The position numbers were made by a program, and so were the translations under genes. Below the pieces are notes generated by a model. It ran no database searches and was not told where the DNA came from. It saw only the letters and a list, made by a program, of their open reading frames with translations. Shown here piece by piece: positions 17,372 through 48,092 of a DNA stretch of 64,000 bases (positions are counted from its first letter, which is position 1; each line of letters opens with the position of its first letter). The stretch is taken from positions 166,081-230,080 of the forward strand of contig DOGZ01000014.1 in NCBI GenBank assembly GCA_003528115.1, read 5' to 3'. The stretch is from Candidatus Omnitrophota bacterium (GTDB lineage Bacteria > Omnitrophota > Gorgyraeia > Zapsychrales > Zapsychraceae).

Positions 17372-17392
17372 CAGCACCTCGACAATTTTTAA

Positions 17393-19951: not shown

Positions 19952-20104
19952 ACGGCGTCGTGTCAAGGTAATGATGAAGAGTTGGGTAGTAGTACTGTGT
20001 CAGCTAAATTTTTATATCAAGGAACACAGTACAACATTGCACTTTTTCTTGAAGTTAGCTAAAAAATTTATCTGACAGTGTAGTAGTTAACAGCGGGGAG
20101 ATGT

Positions 20105-20524: not shown

Positions 20525-20534
20525 AAAAAGCAGG

Positions 20535-22498: not shown

Positions 22499-22499
22499 A

Positions 22500-23945
22500 A
22501 TGAAAAAAAATATTTCATCCGTCTTAGAAATCACAGATTCTCATGTGAAGTTTTTTCAGGCAAAAGGATTGTCTGATAAACGTGTCATCACATCCTGTGT
22601 TGTACGGCCGATCGTTGGGGATACCGAGGAAGAGCTGGTTAAGATTTTTAAAGAGATACTACACTTGAAGAATATCGTGCCGGATGAGTTGGTGCTGATT
22701 CTTCCGCGGCGGTTAACCATTTTAAAACAGATGCGGCTCCCGTCCCATCATGATCAGGAAATCAGTCAAATGATCGGACTGCAGTTGGTCAATAAGATCC
22801 CTTACGCGCTGGAAGATGTTATTTACGACTATCATCTGTTGGGAAAGGAGACCTCCGGCTATACGCAGGTGCTTGTGATTGTTGTACTCAAGGAAGTGAG
22901 CGAGCGATATCTGAAGATCCTCAATAGGGTCGGCGTAAAATTGAGCCGATTAACGTTAAGTTCTTTAGGCATTCTGGATTGGCTGATTTATCAGGAAAGT
23001 AAGAAGATGATTGAAACGCGACAGGCCGTGGGGCTCATTAACATGGACACGATTCATTCGGAAATCTGTTTTTGCCACAATAAAAGTTTGCTTTACTCCA
23101 GGAATATGAATTACGGCGCGCAGGATCTCAAGGACGACAATCTTCACGGCTTTATGAATCAAATTGAATTAAGTCTCAAAGGTTACCAGAAAGAAAGCAT
23201 GGGCCCGGAAATCGGGAAAATTCTGATTGTCTCCCCCACCCAGGAGGTGTTCAATTTAAGAGACAGGTTAAAACAAGAGTTTAATCTTCCTATTCAAATT
23301 TTTTCGCCATTGGAGAATGTCCTGTGTCAAAAAAATTTAGATTTATCTTCGATGAAACATCACTTTGGCCTTTCTTTGACGGCCGGATTCGGCATGTTAT
23401 TTTCTGATACGCCTAAATTGGTTAATCTCGCGCCAAGGGAGATTCATCAAACGCGTCAAACGAGGATGCGCAAACGTCAGGTCGCGTGGTTTGTTTCCTT
23501 AATCCTTCTTTTTTTTATCTTGAGCGTTTCTGCTGCGGGAATGGAATTATACAGAAAGAATATTTATTTCAAGAAACTGGAAGACCGAATCATCCAGACG
23601 AAACCCACGGTTAAAGCGACCGAACAAAAAATGCGTGTTGTTCATTTTCTGGAGGGAGAATTTCAGGACCGCATTTTTATCCCTGATCTGATTCTCAATT
23701 TGTATCGTCTAACGCCGCCGGAGATATCTTTTCGTTCTTTATCGTTGGATGAAAAAGGTGGATTTGTGATTCAGGGGTATGGGGAGACAAGCGTGAGTGT
23801 GAATGATTTTCAGGCCAATTTAGTCAAGTCCTCTGTTTTTAAAGAGATAAATCTTGAATTCGCGACCAAGCGCAGGATTTTTAACATGGATGTGACGGAT
23901 TTTAAAATAACCTCTCAATTGATTAAGAGCCGGATGCCGCAGTAA
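22500..23945 (+). CDS. gspL: GspL-like protein (PilM-like cytoplasmic domain + TM + periplasmic domain)
   Basis: ATG 22500 lies 2 nt after the gspK stop. The N-terminus is ISSVLEITDSHVKFFQAK. A TM helix VAWFVSLILLFFILSVSAAG precedes a periplasmic C-terminal domain. Confidence 0.55.
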   Translation: MKKNISSVLEITDSHVKFFQAKGLSDKRVITSCVVRPIVGDTEEELVKIFKEILHLKNIVPDELVLILPRRLTILKQMRLPSHHDQEISQMIGLQLVNKIPYALEDVIYDYHLLGKETSGYTQVLVIVVLKEVSERYLKILNRVGVKLSRLTLSSLGILDWLIYQESKKMIETRQAVGLINMDTIHSEICFCHNKSLLYSRNMNYGAQDLKDDNLHGFMNQIELSLKGYQKESMGPEIGKILIVSPTQEVFNLRDRLKQEFNLPIQIFSPLENVLCQKNLDLSSMKHHFGLSLTAGFGMLFSDTPKLVNLAPREIHQTRQTRMRKRQVAWFVSLILLFFILSVSAAGMELYRKNIYFKKLEDRIIQTKPTVKATEQKMRVVHFLEGEFQDRIFIPDLILNLYRLTPPEISFRSLSLDEKGGFVIQGYGETSVSVNDFQANLVKSSVFKEINLEFATKRRIFNMDVTDFKITSQLIKSRMPQ

Positions 23946-24013
23946 AGCGTGGTTCCGAGGGAGGTTGCCTCTGGACGGAGAAGCGGATTCCGCCAAGAGG
24001 CAAGAAAGGCCGC

Positions 24014-24547
24014 ATGATGAAACGTTTAACGACACGAGAGCAAATCATCTTCGTCGTTTGTCTTTTTTTGGTTTTTATTTATCTGGGATATCAGTTGGGA
24101 GTAAAGCCTTTGAACGAAAAAGTCGCCTTTATTAAGACGAAAATTGAGGCTGAGGAAAGAAAACTCGGCAAACATTTGGCTGTCCTGGGCAATACCTCGA
24201 CTTTAGAAGAAGTGTATCAAGTTTATCTGAGCCATTTTAAGCAATCCAAAAGTAATGAACAGGTGATGTCGTCGATGGTTTCTGAAATCGAGGATGTGGC
24301 CAGTGAACTTTCTTTGCGGATTTCAGATTTAAAACCTAAAAGGGTCAAGACGGATCAATACAGCAATCATTTTTCCGTGAGTTTGACTTTAGAGAGTTCC
24401 TTACCGGATATCATCCATTTTATGCATAAATTACAAAATCAGCCTTATCTGTTGGCCGTGGAAGAATTCCGTTTTGATAAAAGCGCTCGGGCCGAGGCGG
24501 CAACCATTAAAACTCAGCTTGTTTTGAGCAAAACGTTAATTCCTTGA
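24014..24547 (+). CDS. gspM: GspM/PilO-like bitopic protein
   Basis: It has an N-terminal TM helix IIFVVCLFLVFIYLGY followed by a coiled coil. Its position after gspL fits. Confidence 0.45.
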   Translation: MMKRLTTREQIIFVVCLFLVFIYLGYQLGVKPLNEKVAFIKTKIEAEERKLGKHLAVLGNTSTLEEVYQVYLSHFKQSKSNEQVMSSMVSEIEDVASELSLRISDLKPKRVKTDQYSNHFSVSLTLESSLPDIIHFMHKLQNQPYLLAVEEFRFDKSARAEAATIKTQLVLSKTLIP

Positions 24548-24578
24548 GAAAAATTTCCAAAGATTTCTCTATTCTTAA

Positions 24579-24607
24579 TTGACTTTAATTTATATATATA
24601 TAAAAAT
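24579..24607 (+). promoter_or_regulatory. AT-rich sigma70-like promoter candidate (TTGACT-N16/17-TAAAAA) before the gspC-like and gspD genes
   Basis: A 75-nt, very AT-rich spacer ttgactttaatttatatatatataaaaat lies between gspM and the next gene. Confidence 0.25.
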
Positions 24608-24621
24608 AACATCCATATTTA

Positions 24622-25218
24622 ATGAAATTTTTTACCGCGAAATCTCAGGCGACACAAGGCCATCCGGGAACCGCGAATCTCGTTGGTAACACCAGGAAAC
24701 GAGAGGGCGGGTTTGATTCTTTTAAATTGTGTAATCGTGTCCTGGCCGTTCTTTGTGGCGGGATGTTTGTCTATATTGTGGTCCAAATTGTATCTACTCC
24801 TGTTGAATCCCCAGGCGCGGATCCCCGTAAGAAAAAAGAGGAGGAAAGGATAGTAAAGGAATTTTTCCTGCCGTCCCGGCAATTCTTTGATTTTTATCAG
24901 AATGAAATGAGCGGACGCGATATTTTCAAATCCCTTTGGGAGGAAGAGCCCAAGGGGGAATCAGTTCCGCAACCTCAGCCGATTCTTCAGCCTGCGTTCC
25001 CCATCGATACAAACCCCGTGCCGCTTTTGCAGGGGCAATTGAAGGTGGTGGGTATTGTCTTGGGGGATGTGCCGGAGGCGATTGTTGAAGATTTACAAAC
25101 CCATGAAACTGTTTTCTTGAAAAGAGGGGAACGACTGGGAGAGGCTTTAGTAGACGAAATTTTAAAAGACAAGGTGATATTTGTCTATAACAACCAGAGG
25201 GTTGAGTTGGCGCCATAA
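24622..25218 (+). CDS. gspC: GspC/PilP-like protein (TM anchor + Pro-rich linker + HR/secretin-interacting beta-domain)
   Basis: A TM helix VLAVLCGGMFVYIVVQIV is present. The C-terminus reads LKVVGIVLGDVPEAIVEDLQTHETVFLKRGERLGEALVDEILKDKVIFVYNNQRVEL, typical of the PilP/GspC HR domain. It sits directly upstream of the secretin. Confidence 0.45.
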   Translation: MKFFTAKSQATQGHPGTANLVGNTRKREGGFDSFKLCNRVLAVLCGGMFVYIVVQIVSTPVESPGADPRKKKEEERIVKEFFLPSRQFFDFYQNEMSGRDIFKSLWEEEPKGESVPQPQPILQPAFPIDTNPVPLLQGQLKVVGIVLGDVPEAIVEDLQTHETVFLKRGERLGEALVDEILKDKVIFVYNNQRVELAP

Positions 25219-25219
25219 G

Positions 25220-27151
25220 ATGAGACAGACTATTTTTCCTTTAAAACGGGCGGTTAGAACATTTTACCTCATCGGGCTTTGCCTCCTTTTGTATTTAGGA
25301 GGTGGGATGGATGTTGCGGTTCCTTACTATTCCGATGAGGCGGGTTTCTCCCAAAGGGTTTCCGAGAAAATTATCCTGGATGTTTTGGATTTAAAACAAA
25401 TGGACATCCTGGATGTTCTGAAGCTCATGTCCAAAAAAAGCGGCTTGAATATTGTGGCCGGTCAGAATGTTAAAGGGCGGATATCGATTTATGTGGAAAA
25501 GATGGATGTCGAAGACGCGTTAGAAATCATCGTCGACTCTTATGGATGGGCGTATGAACGGGAAGGGAATATTGTCAGGGTGATGACAAGTCAGGATTAT
25601 GAGAACAAATACGGCCATAAATTCGGTGAAGATTTTGAAACACGCGTCAAACAATTATCGTTCGCCAATACGGCGGATTTACTCGCTGTTCTGAATCAAG
25701 TCAAAAGCAGGTCCGGGAGAGTCGTGGCGGACGACAAATCGAATACCATCATCCTTATGGATACGCCTCAGAAGCTTGACGAAATGGAAATGATCATTTC
25801 CAAGATTGACGTTTCCAAGAAAACGGTTATTTTTGATTTAAGTTATGGTAAGGCTGAGGACGTAGCCAATAAGATTTCGGAATTACTCACCCCCAATGTG
25901 GGTGTCGTGAAGCATGATGAACGCTCGAATAAGATCGCGGTTTCAGACACGTCCGTGAAATTAAAAGACATCAGCCAATTGGTCAAGGCCTTTGACCAGC
26001 AAGATAAAGAAGTTCTGATCGAGGCGAAAATTTTGCAGATCCTTTTAAATGACGAACACAAAATGGGGATTGATTGGGAAGGCATTATTCATGATTTTCA
26101 TGATTTTCATCTTAAGAGCGACTTTGGAATTTTGAGCGATTCCGATAAAGGAGGACGGCTGAGCGTCGGGACGGTCGATGATGATAATAAAACTTTTTTG
26201 ATTGAGGCCCTTAAGAGTATGGGGTTGACGAATAATCTTTCCAGCCCCCGGATAACGGCGGTCAATAACAAAGAGGCCAAGATCCTGATCGGATCCACCG
26301 AACCGTATGTGACCACGACCACCACCACGCCTTCCTCAGGGCCGACCACCACCGCCGAGACGGTCAGTTTTATCGAAGTCGGCGTAAAATTATATGTGAC
26401 CCCGACGATTCATAATGACGGTTTTATCACGATGAAGATCAAGCCGGAGGTTAGTTCCGTGGTGGACAATTTAACAACCAGTAATAATAATACGATTCCG
26501 ATTGTGGACACCTCTGAGGCTGAGACAACGGTCATGGTCAAGGATGGCGCGACTATTGTGATCGGCGGACTCATTAAGGAGGAAAAGATTAAAGCGGAAA
26601 AACAGGTGCCGGTCTTGGGTAATGTTCCTATCTTGGGCTATTTATTCAAAAGCAAGACAGATTCCGTGCAAAAGAATGAAATTGTCATTTTCTTGACGCC
26701 AAGAATCATTAGCGGGGATGTGGAAGGTCGGGAAGAGACGCGCGCGAGCTCAAAGCCGCCTTTAAGGCAAAACAGCGTTAATCGAAGGGGACGTATCCTG
26801 GAGCCGGTGACGTCTCGTCGGAATTTAGCCTCCCCTGCGCCTCAAACAGGGGTCATGGCTAACCCGGCGTACAGAAATTATAGTCAGGTCATTCGGCAGA
26901 TGATCAGCCAGCGCGCGCATTTTAATGTGAATCGTCAAATGATTGAACCCGGAGAAGTGCGTTTGTCTTTTATTTTGGCGTCTAACGGCAGATTGAAGCA
27001 AGCCAGCGTTGTCGAAGACAAAACCTCCGCCAGTACGCGTTTGCAGAGTATAGGGTTGAAAAGCCTGCAAGAGTCTGCCCCGTTCCCCCCATTCCCGAAA
27101 GGTCTTAACTATTCAACTTTAAGTTTTAATGTGGTCTTGTCGTTTGATTAG
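25220..27151 (+). CDS. gspD: Secretin GspD family
   Basis: The N-terminus is a signal peptide. N0/N1-like domains are present. The secretin C-domain motif is VPVLGNVPILGYLFKSK…IVIFLTPRII. ATG 25220 lies 2 nt after the upstream stop. Confidence 0.85.
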   Translation: MRQTIFPLKRAVRTFYLIGLCLLLYLGGGMDVAVPYYSDEAGFSQRVSEKIILDVLDLKQMDILDVLKLMSKKSGLNIVAGQNVKGRISIYVEKMDVEDALEIIVDSYGWAYEREGNIVRVMTSQDYENKYGHKFGEDFETRVKQLSFANTADLLAVLNQVKSRSGRVVADDKSNTIILMDTPQKLDEMEMIISKIDVSKKTVIFDLSYGKAEDVANKISELLTPNVGVVKHDERSNKIAVSDTSVKLKDISQLVKAFDQQDKEVLIEAKILQILLNDEHKMGIDWEGIIHDFHDFHLKSDFGILSDSDKGGRLSVGTVDDDNKTFLIEALKSMGLTNNLSSPRITAVNNKEAKILIGSTEPYVTTTTTTPSSGPTTTAETVSFIEVGVKLYVTPTIHNDGFITMKIKPEVSSVVDNLTTSNNNTIPIVDTSEAETTVMVKDGATIVIGGLIKEEKIKAEKQVPVLGNVPILGYLFKSKTDSVQKNEIVIFLTPRIISGDVEGREETRASSKPPLRQNSVNRRGRILEPVTSRRNLASPAPQTGVMANPAYRNYSQVIRQMISQRAHFNVNRQMIEPGEVRLSFILASNGRLKQASVVEDKTSASTRLQSIGLKSLQESAPFPPFPKGLNYSTLSFNVVLSFD

Positions 27152-27194: not shown

Positions 27195-28220
27195 ATGGAT
27201 CAACACAATGTGGATAAGAATTTGAAACGCCCTTCGAAGTGTTTTCAGGGGGTGGAAAATATTTTTTGTGTCTTTGAGAGATATCCCGTGTTTGTCTTAA
27301 CGGTGATATTCTTGATCGGCGTTATCACGATGGTCCTGCACATGAGGACCCTCACGTCACACCTCATCGCGTCCATGGCTGAGAAAAACGCGGCCCTGTA
27401 TTCTGACGCGCTTGAGGAATTGCGCACCCTCTACACGTCGGAAGTCGTCGAACGCGTCAGAGCCCGGGGGATCGAGGTCACGCATGATTATCAGGAAAAA
27501 GAAGGGGCTATTCCGCTTCCGGTGACTTTGAGCATGATGATAGGGGAACGGATAGCAACCCATGCTCAGGGAGCCAGGAGCCGGCTTTACAGCGATCTTC
27601 CATTCCCCTGGCGCAAAGACGGCGGCCCAAGGGATGATTTTGAAAAGAAAGCTTTAGAATTTTTAAGGAATCATCCCGCGGAGAGTTTTAGCCGTATCGA
27701 GGCCTTTGAGGGGCGTGAGTCCATACGGTACGCGACGGCGGATATCATGCGGCCAAGTTGCGTTCAGTGTCATAATACTCATCCGCAGACGCCTAAAACG
27801 GATTGGAAATCCGGGGATGTCAGGGGTGTGCTGGAGGTCATTCATCCGTTGGATCATTTTATGAGAGAGACAGGGGAGGAGTTGCGGGGAACGGCCGTCT
27901 TTTTATTCATCATCACATTGTCCGCATTGATACTGCTCCTTTTACTGACCGGCCGGCTGCGGCAGACTTCCCGGAGGGTACAGCAACGGACCGAGGAGCT
28001 CGAGAAGGCATTAATGTCAACCGAATCCGCTCATGCCAGGACAGCGCAGGCTTTACAAGAGGCCGAACAAAACCGGCAGCGGACCGAGGAGGCGTTAAAG
28101 CAGACGGAAAACAGCAAAAAAGAACTTGAACGATTGAATGTTTTTATGGTCGGACGGGAACTGAAGATGATGGAGCTCAAAGAAGAGATTAAAGATCTTA
28201 AGGAAAAGTTAGGCAAATAG
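27195..28220 (+). CDS. Membrane-anchored DUF3365 (Tll0287-like) heme-c sensor-domain protein with CxxCH, second TM and cytoplasmic coiled coil; no output domain
   Basis: It has an N-terminal signal-anchor. The periplasmic domain carries the motif PSCVQCHNTHP. A TM helix AVFLFIITLSALILLLLL follows, then an ~80 aa coiled coil. Confidence 0.55.
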   Translation: MDQHNVDKNLKRPSKCFQGVENIFCVFERYPVFVLTVIFLIGVITMVLHMRTLTSHLIASMAEKNAALYSDALEELRTLYTSEVVERVRARGIEVTHDYQEKEGAIPLPVTLSMMIGERIATHAQGARSRLYSDLPFPWRKDGGPRDDFEKKALEFLRNHPAESFSRIEAFEGRESIRYATADIMRPSCVQCHNTHPQTPKTDWKSGDVRGVLEVIHPLDHFMRETGEELRGTAVFLFIITLSALILLLLLTGRLRQTSRRVQQRTEELEKALMSTESAHARTAQALQEAEQNRQRTEEALKQTENSKKELERLNVFMVGRELKMMELKEEIKDLKEKLGK

Positions 28221-28232: not shown

Positions 28233-31055
28233 ATGCGTATTAAAACAAAAATATTTTTGACCTTACTCATCGGCGCGGTCATTTTGATAACGGTGGCGAA
28301 TGGGATTCTCTTTTATTTCTCAGCTAATTATATCAAAGATGAGGTTTATGACCATTTAGAGCTGGCGGCTCAATCAAAGGCTCGCCATGTCGAGACATTT
28401 CTTGAGATGATGCAGGGACGCATGATGGATTTCTCTTCCGATGGGTATATTAAAAATTGTTTAGCCGAGATGAACGGTGTTTCTGATGGAAGTATGGATC
28501 CAATGGTCATCACGTGCACCGCGGACACATTAAGTCAGCATTTGAGGATCAACAAGCTGCCGGCCATAGAAGGGGCTGGGGAGATTTTTGTCCTGGATCT
28601 GGGAGGAAAAGTATCGGCCTCATCCATGAACGAACGCATCGGACGGGATGAATCTCAAAGCCTCTATTTCTTAAAGGGGAAAGAAAGCATTTTATTATCG
28701 GATATATTTTTCTCTAAAGAGTATCAGCAAAACTTTTTTACAGTTTCGGCGCCGGTTAGGAAAGAAAACCGGCTTGTGGGGATCGTCGCCGGAAAAATCA
28801 GTCCACAGATGTTGTACGCTATTCTGCGGGAACCCGTTGGATTAGGCCAAACGGGGGAGATGTATTTAGTCAACAAGGAAGGGTTTATGATCAGCCCCTC
28901 CAGATTTGTGGAGCATGTTATTTTGGCGAAGCAGATTGATCCCAACGTCATCCAAGGAGTTTCGGATCATTGGGGGAAAATGTCTTTTCTGAAGAAAGGC
29001 CAACGCTGGCATAATAATTTTCTGGTTTATAAGAATTACAGGGGCGCCACGGTTTTGGGAACCCTCGCGTATGTGCCGGCCATGGCCTGGTATCTCGTGG
29101 TGGAAACTCAAATGAGTGAAATCTTCTCCCCGCTGGTTCAACTTCTGTGGAGTTTTATTCTTGTCGGGGTACTTTCTCTGTGTCTTATTTATGTTGTCTC
29201 AAACCGGATCGGCCAGAAAATTAGCGATCCTATCGAGCGTCTTCAGTCCGGAACAGAAATCATCACGCGCGGGAATTTAGATCATCACCTCAAGGTTGAA
29301 ACCAATGACGAGATTGGCCAGTTGACGAAATCCTTTAATTATATGACGGATAAATTGAGGGAGACGAATCAGCGCCTTGAAGAGAAAATCAGAGATTTCG
29401 CCCTGAATTTGAAATTGTCAGAGCGGCAGAACAAGATTTTGGAAGACACGAAAAAAGCCACCCTCAATCTTCTGGAAGACCTCAGGGAAGAGCGCAGAAA
29501 GCTTGAGGAAAGTGAAGTCAAGATCCGTTCGGTGGTCGAGAACGCCGTTGACGGCATTATTGTCATTAACAGCCAGGGGATCATAGATTCATTTAACGCG
29601 GCGGCCGCGCGGATCTTCGGTTATGAGGCGAAAGACGTGCTGGGACAGAATATCAAAATGCTTATGCCGGAGCCTTACCGCGGCCAGCATGACAGTTATC
29701 TGAAACGTTACAAAGAGACGGGGGAGAAGAGAATTATCGGCTCTGGACGGGAAGTCCATGGGCAGCATAAAGACGGGACGGTCTTTCCTCTGGATTTGGC
29801 TGTCAATGAAATGAAAATTGGAGAAAGGACGATGTTTACCGGTATTGTGAGAGATATCACGGATCGAAAAATGACTCAGGAACGATTGCGTTTACAGGCT
29901 AAAGCCCTGGAGAGCGCGGCCAATGTGATCATCATTACGGACACCTCCGGTATCATTCGATGGGTGAATCCGGCCTTTACGAAGGTGACGGGGTATATGC
30001 CGCAAGAGGCTATCGGGCGAAAGTCGAGTTTGATTAATTCCGGGAAGCAACCCAAATTTATTTATGAAAAACTCTGGCGGATGATCATGGACGGACAGGT
30101 CTGGCAAGGAGAATTGATCAACCGGCGCAAAGACGGGACTTTTTATTATGTGGATCTGACGATTACGCCTGTTTTTGATGAAAACGGCGGCATTGTTTCC
30201 TATATCGGCATCAGTCAGGATATTACCGATAGAAAAAAAGCTGAACAGCAAATGATTCAGCAGAAGGAAAATTTAGAGAAGGTGAATCTTGAGCTCGACA
30301 GTTTTGTTTATACGGCCAGTCATGATTTGCGCGCCCCTTTACGCGGGATCGCCTCATTTGCCACTTTTCTGGAAGAAGACTATAAAGACAAATTGGACGC
30401 TGAAGGAAAAGATTATTTAAATGAAATCCGCAAAGGCGCCGATCGATTGAGCGCTCTCATTGATGATCTCCTGACGCTTTCCAGGATCGCCAGGATCAAG
30501 AATCCGTATGAGAAAGTGGATATCCGAACCCTCATTGAGGCTGTTCGGGAACGGCTGGAATTCGATATCAAAGAAAGCAAAGTGGAGTTGGGCGTTCAGG
30601 AAAATCTACCGCTTCTTGTGTGCGATCGGATAAAATTAGGTGAGGTTTTTGTGAATTTGATTAATAACTCGATAAAATTCTCTTCGAAAAGCAATAAAGA
30701 AAATCCCAAGGTCGACATAGGCTATAACGAGAGAGAAAAATTTTATGAATTTTATGTGAAAGATAACGGGATCGGCATCGATCCGCAGTACCATGAAAGG
30801 ATTTTTGAGATTTTTAAGCGGTTGCACAAACCCGGTGAGTATGAAGGCACCGGAGCTGGTTTGAGTATTGTTAAACGTATCGTCGAAGATCATGGCGGCC
30901 GGGTATGGGTTGAGTCGCGTTTAGGCCAGGGGGCGGTCTTTTATTTCACGATTCCTAAAGACTTGAAGATAGAGAATGAGGAAGAAGAAAATTTGGCTGA
31001 CGGGAATTACCTCTCTCAATCTGCGTTAAAAGAAAAAAACATGAAAGAAACGTGA
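28233..31055 (+). CDS. Sensor histidine kinase: periplasmic Cache-like domain, HAMP, coiled coil, two PAS, HisKA, HATPase_c (no receiver)
   Basis: TM1 opens a ~280 aa periplasmic domain closed by TM2. The HAMP is …GQLTKSFNYMTDKLRE. The H-box is YTASHDLRAPLRGI. The G-boxes are DNGIGID and GTGAGLSIV. Confidence 0.85.
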   Translation: MRIKTKIFLTLLIGAVILITVANGILFYFSANYIKDEVYDHLELAAQSKARHVETFLEMMQGRMMDFSSDGYIKNCLAEMNGVSDGSMDPMVITCTADTLSQHLRINKLPAIEGAGEIFVLDLGGKVSASSMNERIGRDESQSLYFLKGKESILLSDIFFSKEYQQNFFTVSAPVRKENRLVGIVAGKISPQMLYAILREPVGLGQTGEMYLVNKEGFMISPSRFVEHVILAKQIDPNVIQGVSDHWGKMSFLKKGQRWHNNFLVYKNYRGATVLGTLAYVPAMAWYLVVETQMSEIFSPLVQLLWSFILVGVLSLCLIYVVSNRIGQKISDPIERLQSGTEIITRGNLDHHLKVETNDEIGQLTKSFNYMTDKLRETNQRLEEKIRDFALNLKLSERQNKILEDTKKATLNLLEDLREERRKLEESEVKIRSVVENAVDGIIVINSQGIIDSFNAAAARIFGYEAKDVLGQNIKMLMPEPYRGQHDSYLKRYKETGEKRIIGSGREVHGQHKDGTVFPLDLAVNEMKIGERTMFTGIVRDITDRKMTQERLRLQAKALESAANVIIITDTSGIIRWVNPAFTKVTGYMPQEAIGRKSSLINSGKQPKFIYEKLWRMIMDGQVWQGELINRRKDGTFYYVDLTITPVFDENGGIVSYIGISQDITDRKKAEQQMIQQKENLEKVNLELDSFVYTASHDLRAPLRGIASFATFLEEDYKDKLDAEGKDYLNEIRKGADRLSALIDDLLTLSRIARIKNPYEKVDIRTLIEAVRERLEFDIKESKVELGVQENLPLLVCDRIKLGEVFVNLINNSIKFSSKSNKENPKVDIGYNEREKFYEFYVKDNGIGIDPQYHERIFEIFKRLHKPGEYEGTGAGLSIVKRIVEDHGGRVWVESRLGQGAVFYFTIPKDLKIENEEEENLADGNYLSQSALKEKNMKET

Positions 31056-31124: not shown

Positions 31125-32504
31125 GTGAAAGAAAAAAAACGGCTAGTCATCATTGGTAAATTATCTTTTGTAGAGGACATGGATGTTTTCTTGTCTCAAG
31201 AGGATTTTATTATAGAAAAAGCCGATACCAAGGAGGTCATCACTAAGAGCATTCAACGTGCGGATATGGATATTATTGTTTTTGACGATGATTCCTACCG
31301 TCTCGTTGACGACGCCTTTCATCAGGAGGTCATCCGGCTCATGAGGGCGTCCGGGAAAAATTTTATTGTTGTCTCCTCCAGGTCCATCCCTTCGGCGGTG
31401 ATGGAGGCGAACGAATGGGGGGCCGCGGATTTTATTGTTAAACCGTATAATTGCCGGGAATTCATCGCGCGGATCAATGCCCTTGTGGAAAAAAAAGTCC
31501 GGGTAACTTGTGTGGGCGGGGGGACAGGTCTTTTTAGTTTACTTTTAGGATTTAAAAATCTTTCAGATATCCATTTGACTTCGATTGTCAGCATGAGTGA
31601 TGACGGCGGGTCGTCGGGGAAACTCAGATCTTCGTTCGGGATCCTTCCTCCCGGCGATATCCGCCGAAGCCTGGTCGCTCTTTCCAGCGCGCCTATTTTG
31701 ATGAATGATGTGATGCAGTACCGGTTTCAGAGAGGGAATGAGCTGACGGGACATAGTTTTGGGAATTTATTTCTCACAGCCTTGGCTGAAATCAAGGGGT
31801 CCATGGCGGAGGCCGTAAGAAGCCTTGGGGACATTCTCAACATTCAGGGAATCGTCCTGCCGATAACCAATACACAGACCACCCTCTGCGCTGAGTTTGA
31901 AGACGGGACGATTATCAAAGGGGAAAGCAAGATTGACCGGGCTGAGGAACGGGCCGCGCATCTCAATATCGCCAGAGTCTGGCATGAGCCGGAGACCAAT
32001 TTGGGTATCGAGGCGTATTCGGCGATCATCAACGCGGATTTGATTATCATGGGGCCGGGGGATTTATTCACGAGTGTAATCACGAATTTGATCGTCAATG
32101 GTTTTTGTGAAGCGGTTTCCAATTCTTTAGCCAGGAAATTGTACATTTGTAATCTCATGACCAAAGAGGGGGAGACCTCCGGGTTTGACGTCCGGCGGCA
32201 TGTCCAGGAGATGATTAAATATTTGGGGGAGGACATTTTGGATTGTGTCCTTATTTCGAACACCAGACTTTCGGAAAAGGCGATTTCCGACTATGCCAGA
32301 AAGAACCAGGAACCGGTGAAATTGGGCCCTTGGGAAGAGTTGCACCAACTCACCAAGGCTAAGATGATCGTTGCTGATGTCGGGCATGAAACCCAGCTCG
32401 TGCGCCATGATAGCGTTAAATTAAAGAATGAGATTTTGAAAATTATACAGAATCATATGCGTGTTCATCCGCCTACGCCCGATACCACAACTACTCATGC
32501 GTAA
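31125..32504 (+). CDS. Receiver-like domain fused to a YvcK/CofD-like (UPF0052) domain
   Basis: The N-terminal 120 aa are REC-like (…DIIVFDDD…FIVKPY…). The C-terminal ~330 aa carry the YvcK hallmark VGGGTGLFSLLLG…IVSMSDDGGSSGKLRSSFGILPPGDIRRSL. The start is GTG. Confidence 0.7.
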   Translation: MKEKKRLVIIGKLSFVEDMDVFLSQEDFIIEKADTKEVITKSIQRADMDIIVFDDDSYRLVDDAFHQEVIRLMRASGKNFIVVSSRSIPSAVMEANEWGAADFIVKPYNCREFIARINALVEKKVRVTCVGGGTGLFSLLLGFKNLSDIHLTSIVSMSDDGGSSGKLRSSFGILPPGDIRRSLVALSSAPILMNDVMQYRFQRGNELTGHSFGNLFLTALAEIKGSMAEAVRSLGDILNIQGIVLPITNTQTTLCAEFEDGTIIKGESKIDRAEERAAHLNIARVWHEPETNLGIEAYSAIINADLIIMGPGDLFTSVITNLIVNGFCEAVSNSLARKLYICNLMTKEGETSGFDVRRHVQEMIKYLGEDILDCVLISNTRLSEKAISDYARKNQEPVKLGPWEELHQLTKAKMIVADVGHETQLVRHDSVKLKNEILKIIQNHMRVHPPTPDTTTTHA

Positions 32505-33021
32505 GTTGACTCATGAAGAGATTGTTACAAGACAAGGCCGGAAACTTCAGGAACCGCGTTTGCCGTTTTCCATTATTTTGAATAATATTCGAAGTCTTTA
32601 CAATGTTGGTTCCATATTCCGCACGGCAGACGGAGCCGGGGTGGAGAAAATATGGCTTTGCGGCATTACCGGTCGTCCGCCCAATCCGAGGATATCCAAA
32701 ACAGCCCTGGGGGCCGAAGAACACGTCGCGTGGGAATATCGCGACGATTCCCAAACGGTTATCGGGGATTTAAAAAAGCGTGACTATCAGATTGTTATCC
32801 TTGAACAGGCAGCGGGGAGTTGTTTGTATGAAGATTTTGTGCCTACACCGCCGGTGTGTTTAGTCATCGGCAATGAAATTGACGGTGTTTCTCAATCCAT
32901 TATTCAGTTATGCGACGCGGCCATTGAAATTGAAATGGCGGGGTTGAAAAATTCGTTGAATGTTTCTGTGGCCTTTGGCATTGTTGCGTATCACTTCAGG
33001 AAAAATCTGAGGAATCGGTAA
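32497..33021 (+). CDS. SpoU/TrmH-family RNA 2'-O-methyltransferase
   Basis: SpoU motifs are NVGSIFRTADGAGVE and SLNVSVAFGIVAYHF. It overlaps the upstream stop by 8 nt (ATGCGTAA). Confidence 0.75.
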   Translation: MRKLTHEEIVTRQGRKLQEPRLPFSIILNNIRSLYNVGSIFRTADGAGVEKIWLCGITGRPPNPRISKTALGAEEHVAWEYRDDSQTVIGDLKKRDYQIVILEQAAGSCLYEDFVPTPPVCLVIGNEIDGVSQSIIQLCDAAIEIEMAGLKNSLNVSVAFGIVAYHFRKNLRNR

Positions 33022-33978: not shown

Positions 33979-34338
33979 ATGGTAAAGAAAGTGTTGGTTG
34001 TGGATGATGATCACGCCACGCTCCTTTTAGTCAAAAGGGCGTTGGCCTTGAAGGGGTATAATGTCATTTGCGCGTCGGACGGATTAGACGCCTTGGTCCA
34101 GATTAAGAAAGAAAAACCTGATCTGGTGATTCTGGATGTCATGATGCCGGAGATCAATGGGTATGATGTCTGTTATCAATTAAGATTTAATAAAGATTTT
34201 GAGCAGGTTCCGATTATCCTGCTGACGAACAGAGATCAGGAACTGGATGATAGTCTGAGCCAGAGGCTCAACATTGAGTATCTTTCCAAACCTTTTGATA
34301 CGCAGGTATTGTTAAAAAAAGTAGAGACTTTTTTATGA
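33979..34338 (+). CDS. Single-domain CheY-like response regulator
   Basis: The sequence reads KVLVVDDDHATL…DLVILDVMMP…LSKPF, with the acidic pocket, phospho-acceptor D and conserved K all present. Confidence 0.8.
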   Translation: MVKKVLVVDDDHATLLLVKRALALKGYNVICASDGLDALVQIKKEKPDLVILDVMMPEINGYDVCYQLRFNKDFEQVPIILLTNRDQELDDSLSQRLNIEYLSKPFDTQVLLKKVETFL

Positions 34339-35192
34339 ACCTGGCTTTGTTAGGTGTTGGATTGATGGGTTATCCCGTCGCCGAACGGCTTCTTCAAAGC
34401 GGGCATCAACTCACGGTTTATAATCGGACCATTGCCAAAGTCTATCCGCTTAAAGAAAAAGGTGCAAGGATCGCCCGGACGCCGCAAGAGGCTTGGAGTG
34501 AAGCAGAGGGAATTCTTCTGACGCTCTCTGATGCGCAGGCGATCGCGGATGTGCTGTTTTCCGGAACATATTCGGATTTTCTGGGGAAAACGATCATTCA
34601 GATGGGAACCATCGGGCCGTCGGAAAGCAGGGCCATTCAGAAAGAATTGGCCGCGCGCGGGGCGGATTATTTTGAATGTCCTGTTTTAGGCAGTCGTCAG
34701 GAGGCCGCGGAGGGAACGCTCATTTTGTTGGTAGGTTCAAGCGACGCGCAATTTCAGAAATGGAAGGGTTTTTTCAAGGCCCTTGGCCCCGACCCCTGGC
34801 ATATCGGAGGCGTGGGGCAAGCCGCGGCGCTTAAATTAGCCTTGAATCAATTGATTGCCTCCCATGCGGTTGGTTTTTCTTTAAGCCTGGGGTTGATCGA
34901 GAGGAACCATATCCCGGTGGAAATATTTATGGATATCTTGCGTCAGAGCGCTTTATATGCGCCGATGTTTGATAAAAAATTGGCCAACTGGTTAAGGCGT
35001 GATTACGCGCGTCCGAATTTTCCCGCCAAACATTTGTTTAAAGACGTCGCGTTGATATTCCAAGAAGCCAAGGACAAGGGTTTATCGACGGAATCGTTAG
35101 AGGCGCTGCGTCAGCTCCTTTTAAAAACCATGGACAAAGGGTTGGGGGATCTGGATTATTCGTCCGTCTTTAACGCGGTGAATAATATTTAG
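34335..35192 (+). CDS. NAD(P)-dependent dehydrogenase, 3-hydroxyisobutyrate/6-phosphogluconate dehydrogenase-like family
   Basis: The N-terminus is LALLGVGLMGYPVAERLL. It has an ATGA overlap with the CheY-like gene. Confidence 0.75.
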   Translation: MNLALLGVGLMGYPVAERLLQSGHQLTVYNRTIAKVYPLKEKGARIARTPQEAWSEAEGILLTLSDAQAIADVLFSGTYSDFLGKTIIQMGTIGPSESRAIQKELAARGADYFECPVLGSRQEAAEGTLILLVGSSDAQFQKWKGFFKALGPDPWHIGGVGQAAALKLALNQLIASHAVGFSLSLGLIERNHIPVEIFMDILRQSALYAPMFDKKLANWLRRDYARPNFPAKHLFKDVALIFQEAKDKGLSTESLEALRQLLLKTMDKGLGDLDYSSVFNAVNNI

Positions 35193-35250
35193 CCATGATT
35201 TTCACGATGGAATCTTTGAATTGAGAATAGATCGGGAGTCGGCAACGCCT

Positions 35251-36216
35251 ATGATTCGTGCCCAGAATGTCACAAAGTATTTCGGCGGATTTCCAGCCCT
35301 TAAAAATATTTCTTTTGAGGTGGCGAAGGGCGAGATTATCGGATTTCTGGGGCAAAACGGCGCGGGCAAGACAACGTTGATGCGTGTTTTAACGACGTAT
35401 TTACCGGCCAGTGCGGGCAAGGTTTACATCGCAGGGATGGATGTGTCGAGGCGTTCTTTAGAAATTCGACGGCGCGTGGGGTATCTGCCGGAAAATCCGC
35501 CGCTTTACGGGAATATGACCATCCGTGAGTATCTTAAGTTCGCGGCGCGTTTAAAGGATATCCCGCACAGACAGCAGCGGCCGCACGTTGAAAGGGTTTT
35601 GAAAGATTGTGATCTTTGGGAAGCCAGGGATAAGGTCATTGCCACGCTTTCCAAAGGGTACAAACAAAGAGTCGGCATTGCCCAGGCGATTCTTCATGAG
35701 CCGGAGCTTCTTATTTTGGACGAGCCGACCAGCGGTCTGGATCCCGCGCAGATTCTCCAGGTGCGGCGGCTGATTAAAAGTTTGGAATATCGCAGGACCG
35801 TCATTCTGAGCACGCATATTCTCTCTGAGATCGAACAAATGGCCCAAAGGGTCCTGATCATCAAATCCGGCGAGATCTTAGCGGATTCATCCATCGAGAA
35901 TCTTTTGAAGGGCCCGGGAGGGACATCGGAAGATGGCCGGAGAGTCTGTCTGCGCGTGCAAGGGGTGAGACTGGATTTGGAACCGGCCATCGGAGGAATT
36001 CCCGGGATCAAACTCGCGCGTTGGGCGTCGGAGAATAATACGCATGGCATTGACCTCGAGATGACTCATCCATCGGGCGATTTCAATGAGCTGGCGGAGA
36101 AAGTGGCGCGGGCCGGCGGCCGGATTTTGGAAATCAAAGAATCAAAGGTGAGTTTGGAAGAAGTGTTTCTCCAGATTTCGGGTAACAAGGATCTTTCCCA
36201 TTCGTCACGCGCGTGA
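35251..36216 (+). CDS. ABC transporter ATP-binding protein, GldA-like (ABC-2 type) with C-terminal extension
   Basis: The N-terminus is MIRAQNVTKYFGGFPALKNISFEVAKGEIIGFLGQNGAGKTT. The signature LSKGYKQRVGIA and Walker B ILDEPTSGLD are present. Confidence 0.8.
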   Translation: MIRAQNVTKYFGGFPALKNISFEVAKGEIIGFLGQNGAGKTTLMRVLTTYLPASAGKVYIAGMDVSRRSLEIRRRVGYLPENPPLYGNMTIREYLKFAARLKDIPHRQQRPHVERVLKDCDLWEARDKVIATLSKGYKQRVGIAQAILHEPELLILDEPTSGLDPAQILQVRRLIKSLEYRRTVILSTHILSEIEQMAQRVLIIKSGEILADSSIENLLKGPGGTSEDGRRVCLRVQGVRLDLEPAIGGIPGIKLARWASENNTHGIDLEMTHPSGDFNELAEKVARAGGRILEIKESKVSLEEVFLQISGNKDLSHSSRA

Positions 36217-36219
36217 CGT

Positions 36220-36951
36220 ATGGGCATGAAACGGGGGATTATGCGCAAGATCTTCGCCATAGCCAAGAAAGAACTCGCCAGCCATTTCAAATCCCCTGTC
36301 GCCTATCTTATTCTGGTCATTACCATCTCCGTTTTTAATGTCTTTTTTTTTATGATCCTGGATGAAAACCGGGAAGCCAGCTTGCGGGATATCTTTAAGG
36401 TCATGGAATTTATGTTTGTCTTTTTTATCCCCATTTTAACTATGAAGACTTTTGCTGAAGAAAAGTTTACAGGGACTATGGAGTTTTTGATGACAACTCC
36501 GACAAGCTCCACGGCTATTGTTCTGGGAAAATATCTCGGGTCTCTTTTGTTTTTCACTTTGATTATTTTAGCGACGTCCGTTTATTACGTGATGATCGAG
36601 TTCTTCAGCTCCCCCGACCGCGCGGCAATACTGACAGGATACTTGGGCATATGGCTGGAGGGCGCTTTTTTTATCGCCATTGGGATCCTGACCTCTTCCT
36701 GGACGCGGCATCAGGTGGTCGCGGCCATCAGTTCTTATGTGATCGTATTCCTCGTCTATTTCTCGGTGAGTTTCATCAAGTATTTTCAGGGAACGGCTGA
36801 GTCGCTGATCCGTTATGTCTGTACTATGACGCACATGGAAAATTTTGCCGCCGGCCTTCTCACGGTCACGGATTTGGTATATTACCTCAGCGGAATCCTT
36901 TTTTGTCTTGTTTGCACAAGGATCAGCATTGAAAACCGTCTATGGCACTAG
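36220..36951 (+). CDS. ABC-2 family permease, GldF-like
   Basis: The N-terminus FAIAKKELASHFKSPVAYLIL matches the GldF N-terminus. It has 6 TM helices. Confidence 0.7.
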   Translation: MGMKRGIMRKIFAIAKKELASHFKSPVAYLILVITISVFNVFFFMILDENREASLRDIFKVMEFMFVFFIPILTMKTFAEEKFTGTMEFLMTTPTSSTAIVLGKYLGSLLFFTLIILATSVYYVMIEFFSSPDRAAILTGYLGIWLEGAFFIAIGILTSSWTRHQVVAAISSYVIVFLVYFSVSFIKYFQGTAESLIRYVCTMTHMENFAAGLLTVTDLVYYLSGILFCLVCTRISIENRLWH

Positions 36952-38573
36952 ATAAAAAACAACACCTTGTCTTTGTATTGCTGGCCGGGAGTTTCTTTCT
37001 GTTCTTCGGGCTTGGGGTTTGTTTTGTGGAAAACGCGTGGGACCATCAGGCGGCCGGTGTGGCCCTGATAGGAATTTTGTGTATTTTATTTTGTCTCACG
37101 CGTTTGATGAAAGCTTCTCAAGGAAGGGACGGAACGTTTCGTGGAAAGAAATGGGCGATACTCTGTCTTCTGTTGGTCTTTGGGGGGGCGGTTCTGGCAG
37201 GGATCAATTATTTGGCGCATCGTTATGACCGACGCTGGGATTTGACACGGGCGAAACAGCATACGTTAACGCAGAGGACGGCGTCGCTTCTTAAAGAATT
37301 AAAGGCTGAGGTGAAGATCACCGCCCTTTATGTGGGCATCCCGCCGAAATATGTCGAGGATTTGTTGAAGGAATATGAGCGGTTCTCTGCCGGGAAGGTT
37401 TCATCCGAGATCATTGATCCCCTGGTTCAGATAGGATACGCGGCCCAGTTTGGTCACATCATTAGCGGACAAGAAAAGAAAGTGATTATTCAATCCGCTC
37501 AGGAACGAAGGGACATCGATTTTACGGATAGTCCCTTAAGCGAAGAACAACTGACTAACGCTGTCATCGGGGTGACCCGAGAGGCGCGGACCGTTTATTT
37601 TCTGGTCGGTCACGGGGAATATGATATTGACGCTGAAAAAGAAGAAGGCTTAAATACGTTCACCAAGGCGCTGTTGGCCAATAATATTAAACCCAAGAAT
37701 CTCATGTTAGGGCTTCAGGAAAGAATCCCGGAGGACTGTGATCTTCTGGTGATTGCCGGGCCAAAAGAGTTTCTGACGGAAAAAGAGGAAGTTCTCCTTG
37801 AGGAATATTTGGAGAAGGGTGGAGACGCGTTAATCCTCATTGAACATTCCCTTGTGACAACTCCGGATAAACCTCTGACGGAAGAAGAAAAACAGAAGAA
37901 TCCTTCTCTGAATTCTATCTTGAAGCGCTGGGGCATAGAGGTGGCCCAAGATGTTGTCGTTGATTTGGCCAGCCATGCCAGCGGGGATGTGGGCTGTCCG
38001 GCGACACGGAATTACATGACCCACAAGGCCATTGTCAAAGATCTGGATTACACGTTTTATATCCGTCCCAGATCGATTTCGCTTTTAAGTGATCGTTCGA
38101 GATCTGTCAAACTGGCGCCTTTGGTCTTGACCAGCTCCGGGCAAACCAGTTGGGGAGAAACCGATAGGACACTCCATGTCGAATTTAATGAACAGCTTGA
38201 TCGGCCGGGTCCGGTACCCATCGCCTATGTCATCTGGGAACCCAGAGCTTCCGGTTCTTCCGATAGGGGGCCGTTTCCGGATAACAGCGGACAAAAGAAT
38301 AAATTATCTGATACGCGCCTGATTGTATTTACGGATGCCGACTTTCTCACGAACGCGTATATCGGGCATTATAGTAACGCGCAAATGGGATTGAATCTGG
38401 TGAAGTGGCTTACGGAGTTGGATTATCAAATTTTTGTCCAGCAGGATGCCGTGAAGGTGGAACGGCTTGATTTAACGAGCAGGCAGAAGCGCCTGGTGGC
38501 TTATGTCTTATTTCTTATGCCGGTCTTGATCGCGATGAGCGGGGTGGTGGTGTGGATGCGACAGGAAAGTTGA
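36942..38573 (+). CDS. GldG-like ABC-transporter auxiliary protein (N-terminal TMs, large periplasmic domain, C-terminal TM)
   Basis: Its topology and position after GldA/GldF-like genes fit. The C-terminal anchor is RLVAYVLFLMPVLIAMSGVVVW. Confidence 0.6.
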   Translation: MALDKKQHLVFVLLAGSFFLFFGLGVCFVENAWDHQAAGVALIGILCILFCLTRLMKASQGRDGTFRGKKWAILCLLLVFGGAVLAGINYLAHRYDRRWDLTRAKQHTLTQRTASLLKELKAEVKITALYVGIPPKYVEDLLKEYERFSAGKVSSEIIDPLVQIGYAAQFGHIISGQEKKVIIQSAQERRDIDFTDSPLSEEQLTNAVIGVTREARTVYFLVGHGEYDIDAEKEEGLNTFTKALLANNIKPKNLMLGLQERIPEDCDLLVIAGPKEFLTEKEEVLLEEYLEKGGDALILIEHSLVTTPDKPLTEEEKQKNPSLNSILKRWGIEVAQDVVVDLASHASGDVGCPATRNYMTHKAIVKDLDYTFYIRPRSISLLSDRSRSVKLAPLVLTSSGQTSWGETDRTLHVEFNEQLDRPGPVPIAYVIWEPRASGSSDRGPFPDNSGQKNKLSDTRLIVFTDADFLTNAYIGHYSNAQMGLNLVKWLTELDYQIFVQQDAVKVERLDLTSRQKRLVAYVLFLMPVLIAMSGVVVWMRQES

Positions 38574-41508: not shown

Positions 41509-42618
41509 ATGAAGATCAACAGATGGACACGGTGGATACAAACGTTTCATTATCCCTCGTATTTTATATTTTTTGTGACCGCCCGCTGTAACGCCCGATG
41601 TCCGATGTGCTTTTATATGGAGAATATGGAAAGCAACGCGGCGAAGCGGGAGTTGAGGGTCGAGGAATATGAAAAGATCAGTCGCAGTATCCCATTGATC
41701 AATATCCTGGGTATTTCCGGCGGGGAACCGTTCTTGAGAGAGGATTTGCATGAGATTGTTCAGGTGATGTATAAAAACTGCTCGCCCTGGGTTGTTGATC
41801 TGCCGACCAATGGCTTTTTAACAAAAAGCGTGCTCAAACAGGTGGAAGAGATCGCACGGCGTTGTCCGGATATGGTGGTGGATCTCCAGCTTTCCATAGA
41901 CGGGCCGCCGGAGATCCATAATCAGATCCGAGGGCTTAAGGATGGGTTTGGCCGTATGCGCGAGACCTATCTGGGCTTGGTGGCGCTCAAGAAACGCTAC
42001 AGGAATTTGAAGGTCAAGGCCTGCGTGGTGTATTCGCATTATAACCAGGATCATATAGAGCCATTATTCGACATGCTTCACAGCGATTTTACGGATTTGG
42101 ACAGAATCGTTTTCTCCGTGGCGCACGGAAGCGTCTACAACGATGAAGCCATGGCTTTTGATTGGGAAAGGTATTTCAAGAACTGCGCGCGGATCCGAGA
42201 GGCGTCGACAGTAAAAGACATTAAAGATCTGCATTCGATTTTTACGATAGCCTTGAGAATTGTCAAAAATGATTTGCTTAAAGAGATCCTCCGGAAAAAA
42301 AATATGGTTCAATTATGCGGGGCCGGTCAAAAGGTTGTTGTGATTAATGAGCTTGGTCAGGTGTTTCCTTGTGAACCGCTATGGCGGCCCGTGGGGGATT
42401 TGACAAAGAATGGGTATGACCTGAATCAAATCCTTCGATCTGAGGCCATGAAACAATTCCAGGATCAAATCGTCCGGGAGAAATGCAACTGCCATTGGGG
42501 GCTGCCGATGTCCACCGCGCTCATTTATAGTCCCAGGTATTATCCGAAGATTTTGTTTGAAATGACAAGGATCTTATCCAGGAGTTTATTCCGCTCAAAA
42601 AAAATGGAAAACTTCTAA
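41509..42618 (+). CDS. Radical SAM enzyme with C-terminal SPASM/twitch-like Cys cluster
   Basis: The motif is CNARCPMC (CxxxCxxC). A GGEP-like ISGGEPFL is present. C-terminal cysteines occur in CGAGQ…PCEP…CNCHWG. Confidence 0.8.
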   Translation: MKINRWTRWIQTFHYPSYFIFFVTARCNARCPMCFYMENMESNAAKRELRVEEYEKISRSIPLINILGISGGEPFLREDLHEIVQVMYKNCSPWVVDLPTNGFLTKSVLKQVEEIARRCPDMVVDLQLSIDGPPEIHNQIRGLKDGFGRMRETYLGLVALKKRYRNLKVKACVVYSHYNQDHIEPLFDMLHSDFTDLDRIVFSVAHGSVYNDEAMAFDWERYFKNCARIREASTVKDIKDLHSIFTIALRIVKNDLLKEILRKKNMVQLCGAGQKVVVINELGQVFPCEPLWRPVGDLTKNGYDLNQILRSEAMKQFQDQIVREKCNCHWGLPMSTALIYSPRYYPKILFEMTRILSRSLFRSKKMENF

Positions 42619-42645
42619 ATTAAGAGGTTTTTCCCCGGGGGTTAC

Positions 42646-44124: not shown

Positions 44125-44131
44125 TGCTTTT

Positions 44132-48090: not shown

Positions 48091-48092
48091 TC

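Follow-up and report, generated by a model that had tools for sequence, protein, structure and literature searches.

Carbon entering the synthesis of peptidoglycan precursors passes a checkpoint formed by YvcK/GlmR proteins. The characterised members, such as YvcK/GlmR of B. subtilis and L. monocytogenes, CuvA of mycobacteria and BH3568, are single-domain proteins whose regulation by UDP-N-acetylglucosamine (UDP-GlcNAc), YvcJ and Ser/Thr kinases such as PrkC has been reported (PMC7525490, PMC6171935); regulation of YvcK is known so far only through these three routes, in Gram-positive bacteria. Here we describe a protein encoded in a 64-kb stretch of DNA from a Candidatus Omnitrophota bacterium (contig DOGZ01000014.1, positions 166,081 to 230,080; the whole stretch is called the window), in which a YvcK/GlmR domain follows a domain derived from a two-component receiver (REC). 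Regulation through a receiver-derived domain on YvcK would solve this problem in another way. It would also be a non-transcriptional two-component output of which no description was found, and a full-text literature search returned no paper on a REC-YvcK or REC-CofD architecture.

Receiver-type domains located N-terminally to an output other than DNA binding are known from CheB, PleD, RpfG and PorX; unlike the domain of the Omnitrophota fusion, those receivers are canonical and phosphorylatable. Bourret et al. (2025, PMC12632262) apply the term pseudo-receiver to a receiver in which at least one of the catalytic five (DD, D, T and K) is missing. Bacterial pseudo-receivers such as CmrT in CmrRST, WhiI/BldM, FrzS and the adaptor domain of PleD combine the (βα)5 fold with loss of catalytic residues, as the Omnitrophota domain does, and the Pro at D+4 is likewise lost in the Omnitrophota family. 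The known examples have DNA-binding, GGDEF or coiled-coil outputs, whereas the output here is YvcK; moreover, D, T and a new Asp at D+2 are far more conserved than in pseudo-receivers generally, and the family is phylum-wide. Pseudo-receivers embedded in otherwise normal two-component systems, as well as receiver/pseudo-receiver heterodimers, have been described, with mechanisms that are largely unknown (PMC12632262). Among these, CmrRST and WhiI/BldM (PMC12632262) are comparable to the loci in which kinase, receiver and pseudo-receiver-YvcK genes occur together, and the fusion, like CmrT, shares its operon with a kinase and a receiver of the normal kind. The Omnitrophota family, which has kept an Asp/Ser/Lys pocket and an Asp at D+2 while the metal-binding pair is gone, provides a large natural test case of whether such a domain is dead, repurposed or still phosphorylatable.

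A receiver fold in front of Omnitrophota YvcK

The fusion gene (31125..32504, + strand, in window positions) is a complete open reading frame (ORF) of 459 amino acids (aa) with a GTG start, ~7 nt 5' of which lies the Shine-Dalgarno-like motif AGGAAGG; the start point is shared with homologs. A 100% identical protein (P0001) is encoded on a 366-kb contig of a Candidatus Omnitrophica metagenome-assembled genome. The pseudo-receiver occupies aa 5-121 (31137..31487, + strand) and the YvcK/GlmR (CofD-like, UPF0052) domain aa ~125-442 (31497..32450, + strand). They are joined by a linker of three residues, E122-K123-K124 (31488..31496, + strand), the borders of which were set by DSSP on an AlphaFold2 model: the last helix of the pseudo-receiver, α5, spans residues 110-121 and the first YvcK strand spans 125-130. 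K124 and R126 are each kept in about 87-89% of homologs.

The initial annotation had proposed a REC-like domain of ~120 aa ahead of the YvcK core, and profile comparison, the modelled fold and Foldseek all bear this out for aa 5-121. The Pfam Response_reg model PF00072 gave 24.4 bits on the N-terminal ~125 aa, under its gathering score of 30.2. A precomputed PF00072 hit is present in about one third of the homologs; about a third carry PF00072 together with PF01933, and to that extent the architecture is already visible in domain databases, where the fusion proteins are annotated simply as "YvcK family". A profile built from 33 homologous N-domains matched 181 solved receivers end to end (best E=8e-15), and its top matches in the PDB were mostly of the OmpR/PhoB type (WalR/YycF, VicR, PhoP, CpxR and PmrA). 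The AlphaFold2 model of the fusion has a mean predicted local distance difference test score (pLDDT) of 82, reaching 85-97 over aa 1-125, and a predicted template modelling score (pTM) of 0.81. Its N-domain is a clean (βα)5 fold in canonical order (β1 5-10, α1 13-26, β2 28-33, α2 36-44, β3 50-54, α3 63-76, β4 79-84, α4 89-97, β5 102-105, α5 110-121). Foldseek superposed it on the receivers of PmrA, CtrA, DrrD, PhoB and VicR with template modelling (TM) scores of 0.8-0.86, at a root-mean-square deviation of 2.1-2.7 Å for the first four; no solved structure containing both a receiver and a YvcK part was among the Foldseek matches. Against a representative library of 1.84 billion entries, the N-domain profile returned 72,899 matches at E≤1e-3, mostly multi-receiver proteins, a result that marks the domain as a generic receiver homolog only and gives neither a family count nor other architectures. 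The N-terminal region is therefore a receiver by homology and fold, and only partly by its catalytic residues.

The best sequence and structure matches, receivers of the OmpR/PhoB family (WalR/YycF 3f6p, VicR 8fk2, PhoB 1zes and PmrA), share with the domain the α4-β5-α5 motif GAxDY...KP[FY]xxRE[LF]xxR, which is the dimerisation element of that family; in the PDB matches it reads KPFxxRELxxR. In the fusion, the KP[FY]xxRE[LF]xxR segment runs directly into YvcK. Unlike OmpR/PhoB proteins, the fusion has no winged-helix DNA-binding domain and no DD pair, and its β3-α3 loop reads D-x-D-x-[Y/F] instead of D-x-M-x-P. Judged by these matches, the pseudo-receiver appears to be derived from an OmpR/PhoB-like receiver that has since lost the DD pair of the β1-α1 loop.

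The YvcK/CofD-like identity of the second domain was also upheld. The Pfam CofD model PF01933 matches aa 127-406 (E=1e-88), the NCBIfam "YvcK" model TIGR01826 is matched over its whole length (profile positions 1-310 of 310) at 319.9 bits, its cutoff being 196, and the motifs GGGTG, DDGGSSG and PPGDIRR are present. YvcK of B. halodurans, BH3568 (PDB 2o2z/2hzb), was matched by Foldseek with E=3e-27, TM 0.86 and 40% identity, and the C-terminal 320 aa correspond to a full-length member of the family. Y390 and R427 align to Y265 and R301 in 2o2z numbering, which is assumed to be the same in B. halodurans and B. subtilis, and substitution of Y265/R301 in B. subtilis GlmR abolishes UDP-GlcNAc binding (PMC7525490). 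Because the equivalents of these two residues are invariant among 38 homologs, the YvcK domain looks like a functional UDP-sugar binder. The retained Tyr and Arg, and the recurrence of sugar-nucleotide and exopolysaccharide genes as neighbours, are features held in common with YvcK/GlmR.

Two related families were considered and rejected for this domain. CofD proper, the 2-phospho-L-lactate transferase of F420 biosynthesis, is excluded by 18.5 bits against a cutoff of 257 for TIGR01819 and by Foldseek TM scores to CofD/FbiA of just 0.55-0.66, and the CofD-like protein of the GAK system by 100 bits against a cutoff of 340 for TIGR04357. No neighbour of the YvcJ/RapZ or WhiA family was found among the Pfam-annotated genes of the eleven loci with gene tables. 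An approximate E. coli RapZ query had no match in the flanks of 91 loci, other phyla included, and is accordingly uninformative for Omnitrophota.

The fusion is widespread within the phylum. Proteins of 435-465 aa from at least 120 clusters align to ~95% of the query with 50-61% identity, and clusters with a named source among the matches listed are nearly all from Omnitrophica or Omnitrophota. A scan of GTDB species representatives and a metagenome scan, both of which are samples of best-matching loci and not a census, gave the same split. Among the best 80 loci of the GTDB scan, every Omnitrophota-labelled YvcK locus has the N-terminal extension, whereas matches from CPR, DPANN, Chloroflexota, Nitrospira and other phyla span only query residues ~126-441, and the non-Omnitrophota YvcK ORFs sampled start within ~30 aa of the YvcK domain; in the metagenome scan, too, Omnitrophota were fused and other phyla unfused. 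One Omnitrophota-labelled locus, L053, was scored unfused; its YvcK frame is interrupted and a REC-bearing ORF immediately precedes it, a split that may reflect a frameshift. Since the extension is present in all Omnitrophota YvcK loci sampled and absent from those of the other phyla in the sample, the fusion is the standard YvcK of Omnitrophota and no peculiarity of this genome. The initial annotation had named a YvcK N-terminal extension common to the clade as an outcome that would refute its proposal, and such an extension is what the sampled loci carry; the wider survey for REC-YvcK fusions that it recommended pooled 54 distinct fused loci. The window itself contains one YvcK, two kinases and three receiver-type domains in its whole 64 kb.

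The active site of the pseudo-receiver

The catalytic positions, on which hidden Markov model (HMM) alignments and the modelled strand ends concur, are G11 (DD1), K12 (DD2), D54 (D), D56 (D+2), S84 (T), S85 (T+1), F103 (K-3), K106 (K) and P107 (K+1), with R111-E112...R116 as the α5 motif. Both metal-binding acidic residues are thus gone from the window protein, which has G11 and K12 instead, and the phospho-acceptor D54, S84, the aromatic F103 and K106-P107 are present. Residue statistics were compiled from 140 non-redundant fused proteins, with 35 canonical receivers encoded in the same loci as the control. DD1 is acidic in 0/140 family members (G 77%, A 9%) and in 92% of the canonical receivers, and DD2 is acidic in 27% of the family, compared with Asp in 89% of the controls. 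At D, Asp is found in 89% versus 97%, and at D+2 in 89% versus 0%, Met being the residue in 40% of canonical receivers. Pro at D+4 falls from 86% in the controls to 4% in the family, where Tyr/Phe make up 58%. The T position is Ser/Thr in 95% of the family and 100% of the controls, T+1 is Ser in 84% of the family and Ala/Gly in 94% of the controls, and K is Lys in 62% (Arg 25%) as against 94%. All five catalytic residues together occur in 0/140 family members.

In true receivers, DD1 and DD2 are 100% acidic (PMC12632262). Because both DD acidic residues are absent, and by the definition given above (PMC12632262), the whole family, the window protein included, is classed from its residues as a pseudo-receiver, and canonical Mg2+-dependent phosphotransfer therefore cannot be assumed. 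The check on the phospho-acceptor Asp and the KP motif that the initial annotation had asked for gave a divided answer: D54, S84 and K106-P107 are present and the Asp is kept in 89% of the family, but the DD pair is absent and the Lys is found in only 62%. Residue conservation in pseudo-receivers is generally ~65% (PMC12632262), and the strong conservation of G11, D54, D56, S84 and S85 suggests a site that is remodelled, not merely decayed. The β3-α3 loop has been rebuilt to a conserved D-x-D-x-[Y/F], as opposed to D-x-M-x-P. The most conserved stretch of the domain is α4-β5-α5, with A95, G99, D102, P107, Y108, N109, R111, E112, R116 and N118-A119; R111 is invariant (100%) and E112 is conserved in 95-97%.

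Far more degenerate N-domains were seen in two higher-GC members of the family (L025 6803-8116 and L029 2066-3337), with, for example, replacement of K by A in 'IAAPLPQRE'. These two N-domains escape the receiver HMMs used here, yet they retain the RE[LF] α5 motif. The Kofleriaceae label of L025 may be due to a problem in binning or labelling.

Two-component neighbours and the possible role of the domain

The fusion gene of the window is preceded by a gene for a sensor histidine kinase (28233..31055, + strand), which ends 69 nt before it and has, by Pfam, the non-hybrid architecture dCache-HAMP-PAS-PAS-HisKA-HATPase. This kinase had been described as an orphan, a view that no longer stands: a canonical stand-alone receiver (33979..34338, + strand; VVDDD...LDVMMP...LLTN...SKPF; PF00072 85 bits) is encoded in cis on the same strand, 2.9 kb downstream of the kinase. 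From its residues, this receiver would be a more orthodox phospho-acceptor for kinase 28233 than the pseudo-receiver.

Neighbourhoods were compared across the 54 distinct fused loci, with flanks of up to ±7 kb. A HisKA/HATPase kinase was found ≤1.5 kb from the fusion gene in 13/54 loci; 13 of the 14 flank kinases lay that near, compared with 28% of flank bases (binomial p=7e-7). Canonical single-domain receivers were likewise ≤1.5 kb away in 10/54 loci (12/19 receivers; p=0.0015), and 18/54 loci had either a kinase or a receiver nearby. Among 89 loci scored unfused, a nearby kinase was seen in one, L053, although the unfused loci stem from other phyla and the near-versus-far comparison inside the fused loci is the fairer control. 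The genes are arranged in several ways around the fusion gene, denoted X, with HK for the histidine kinase and REC for the receiver: HK-X in the window and L009; PelG-X-HK-REC in L008, L010 and L092 (in the last, a CHASE sensor gene is cut by the contig end); HK-REC-X or HK-X-REC in L012, L020, L095 and L104; and, in a fourth arrangement, an OmpR-type regulator and a kinase 0.6-1.4 kb upstream of the fusion gene (L031, L035, L103 and L107). A canonical stand-alone receiver accompanies the directly adjacent kinase in 7/9 loci, and in the window as well. Orthology of the neighbouring kinases was considered and is unsupported, as their cores are 25-33% identical to that of the window kinase, no better than paralogs. 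Between 26.9 and 35.4 kb, predicted promoters and terminators were no more numerous than in shuffled sequence; therefore, operon structure is read from gene spacing alone. Between 1 and 57 kb of the window, nearly all long ORFs lie on the + strand and the GC skew is positive in every 2-kb bin; given this near-uniform coding direction, same-strand adjacency alone is weak evidence of linkage here.

We tentatively propose, with a probability of roughly 0.45, that the pseudo-receiver regulates YvcK as a module for dimerisation or docking and is tied to a two-component pathway in some lineages. Omnitrophota YvcK/GlmR would then consist of an intact UDP-sugar-binding domain with the pseudo-receiver rigidly attached to its N-terminus, a coupling suggested by the three-residue linker and the pTM of the model. 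The conserved α4-β5-α5 face (D102, P107, R111, E112 and R116) would serve as the dimerisation or docking surface, through which the pseudo-receiver may set the oligomeric or partner-binding state of YvcK. If the analogy with GlmR holds (PMC6171935, PMC7525490), YvcK would in this way control how much flux enters UDP-GlcNAc and then precursors of the envelope and exopolysaccharide or of a Pel-type polysaccharide. In about 1/4 to 1/3 of lineages, the window included, the module may be wired to the adjacent sensor kinase and the canonical stand-alone receiver. The signal would most likely enter through contact between proteins, the pseudo-receiver being bound either by the stand-alone receiver in its phosphorylated form or by the DHp domain of the kinase; phosphotransfer to D54 by the canonical Mg2+-dependent route seems less likely than such contact.

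Several points weigh against this proposal. The pocket residues D54, D56, S84 and S85 are each 81-89% conserved and Gly at DD1 is found in 77-82%, as would be expected if the site still bound a phosphoryl group, a metal or a ligand. The stand-alone receivers lack the R-E...R α5 motif, neither a kinase nor a receiver is nearby in 36/54 fused loci, and the output function is extrapolated from GlmR of Firmicutes. In addition, the D-T-K triad is kept in 8/10 directly kinase-adjacent loci versus 11/35 loci without a two-component gene (Fisher p=0.01), a grouping that is post hoc, chosen after the data had been seen, and a p-value that ignores phylogeny; this retention hints at real phosphotransfer in the kinase-adjacent subset.

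The last point leads to a reading that we regard as possible but rather unlikely, in which the N-domain is a working phospho-acceptor: kinase 28233 would phosphorylate D54 and thereby switch YvcK, the D54-(D55)-D56 cluster offsetting the missing DD. Phosphorylation control by this kinase had been put forward in the initial annotation, and part of its basis remains. Kinase adjacency is enriched, the window protein has D54, S84, a small T+1 residue in S85, the aromatic F103 and K106-P107, and the triad follows kinase adjacency as described. The Asp at D+2, found in 89% of the family, occurs in 0/35 of the neighbouring canonical receivers, and DD substitutions do not always abolish phosphorylation, as reviewed in PMC12632262. 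What did not hold is the acidic pocket: G11 and K12 are non-acidic in the window protein, no relative among the 140 is acidic at DD1, and the full acidity of both positions in true receivers (PMC12632262) argues against this reading. The Pfam receiver model also stays under its threshold, many lineages lose D or K yet keep the domain, and the identity of the neighbouring kinase cores does not allow orthologous partners to be demonstrated. Finally, a canonical receiver is present in the same gene string in the window and in most kinase-adjacent loci.

A second alternative, which we consider unlikely, dispenses with signalling: the N-domain would be a constitutive structural or oligomerisation domain of Omnitrophota YvcK without any signalling input, and the kinases would be incidental or concerned with transcription only. 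The extension is clade-wide and is also found in housekeeping contexts without two-component genes, such as NUDIX-Ogt-X-acylphosphatase-LigA. This agrees with the 36/54 loci that have no kinase or receiver nearby and with the merely 62% conservation of K106. The subclade with an OmpR-type regulator and kinase has lost D54 in 3/4 loci, which fits transcriptional control. However, kinases are concentrated next to the gene (p=7e-7), and this in no fewer than three arrangements (HK-X, X-HK-REC and HK-REC-X), and D54, D56, S84, S85 and G11 are conserved well above the ~65% of pseudo-receivers generally.

A further possibility, and an improbable one, is that the metal site of the receiver has moved, its acidic ligands having shifted from the β1-α1 loop, now Gly, to D54-x-D56 of the β3-α3 loop; such a domain might still take a phosphoryl group from neighbouring histidine kinases or from acyl phosphates. 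The conserved D54-x-D56 resembles the DxD of HAD phosphatases, and in several lineages the adjacent gene encodes acylphosphatase or CarB. If true, it would mean direct phospho-control of the flux of UDP-GlcNAc and exopolysaccharide precursors via YvcK, a role held by Ser/Thr kinases in Firmicutes.

That YvcK and the following gene form a functional, translationally coupled unit is very improbable. This gene encodes a SpoU/TrmH-family RNA 2'-O-methyltransferase (32497..33021, + strand; PF00588 E=3e-32, 112 bits against a threshold of 29.7). The 8-nt overlap ATGCGTAA reported in the initial annotation, between the SpoU ATG at 32497 and the fusion stop at 32502-32504 on the same strand, was reproduced; its description there as unusual, and as translational coupling, is not supported. 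The SpoU start is ambiguous among GTG 32461, ATG 32497 and TTG 32506, 11/44 consecutive same-strand gene pairs in the window overlap, and the other 53 distinct fused loci have no SpoU homolog in the ±7 kb around the fusion gene. As SpoU adjacency is seen in this genome alone and overlaps are common, the overlap looks incidental, and a functional SpoU link was rejected.

Recurrent neighbours and the rest of the window

Genes for sugar-nucleotide and polysaccharide metabolism recur next to the fusion. Directly upstream of it, pelF/pelG are found in four loci (L008 3135-5998, L010 400-1794, L091 1070-2464 and L092 3119-5991), pelG in all four and pelF too in L008 and L092; in L028 they lie at ~1 kb upstream. 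Directly downstream in these four loci is a sensor kinase and/or a stand-alone receiver. UDP-GlcNAc 2-epimerase, GlmS and CarB are also among the neighbours, and an NAD-dependent epimerase/dehydratase gene lies directly downstream in five loci, receiver-fused in three. In these three (L017 7886-9274, L019 6327-7814 and L109), a canonical receiver with DD, D, T and K is joined to the NAD-dependent sugar-nucleotide epimerase/dehydratase. The gene for this receiver-epimerase fusion adjoins that of the pseudo-receiver-YvcK and represents a second unusual non-transcriptional receiver output, in sugar-nucleotide metabolism. In a marine lineage (L001 5820-11028), the fusion gene lies between a UDP-GlcNAc 2-epimerase gene and genes for a DHH/DHHA1 phosphoesterase and the diadenylate cyclase CdaA, a context that recalls the GlmR/cdaA/glmM connection of Firmicutes.

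In five distinct loci (L003 8326-8628, L005 8314-8640, L093 6375-6674, L096 and L099), the fusion gene runs into or directly up to an acylphosphatase gene at its 3' end, and DNA ligase comes next where the contig reaches that far. Acyl phosphates are small-molecule phosphodonors for receivers, and the link between acylphosphatase and the fusion may be meaningful for this reason.

In the window, the gene upstream of the kinase (27195..28220, + strand; PF11845 E=2e-19) ends 12 nt before it and encodes a membrane protein with a PAS-type Tll0287-like domain, a haem-c-type CVQCH motif and a C-terminal coiled coil, which may be a candidate redox co-sensor for kinase 28233. Downstream, the stand-alone receiver gene overlaps by 4 nt the gene for a 3-hydroxyisobutyrate/6-phosphogluconate-dehydrogenase-like NAD-binding protein (34335..35192, + strand), after which come genes for an ABC transporter with a gliding-type auxiliary component (35221..38573).

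The remaining parts of the window are occupied by other systems. A partial OmpR-type regulator, an sCache-PAS histidine kinase, PstB and PhoU are encoded in this order at 1..4372 (+ strand), an apparent Pho-type two-component system with no relation to the fusion gene. At 41509..50714 (+ strand) are five radical-SAM genes, of which two encode B12-binding domains and one a SPASM domain, and amid them is a 969-aa ORF (45181..48090) with no Pfam hit. Two tandem gene sets resembling type IV pilus or type II secretion systems fill 4633..27151 (+ strand). Each has a PilB-like ATPase (4633 and 15671), a PilC-like platform protein (6287 and 17393) and a secretin (10860 and 25181), and the second secretin (25181) carries a TonB_2-like C-terminal extension.

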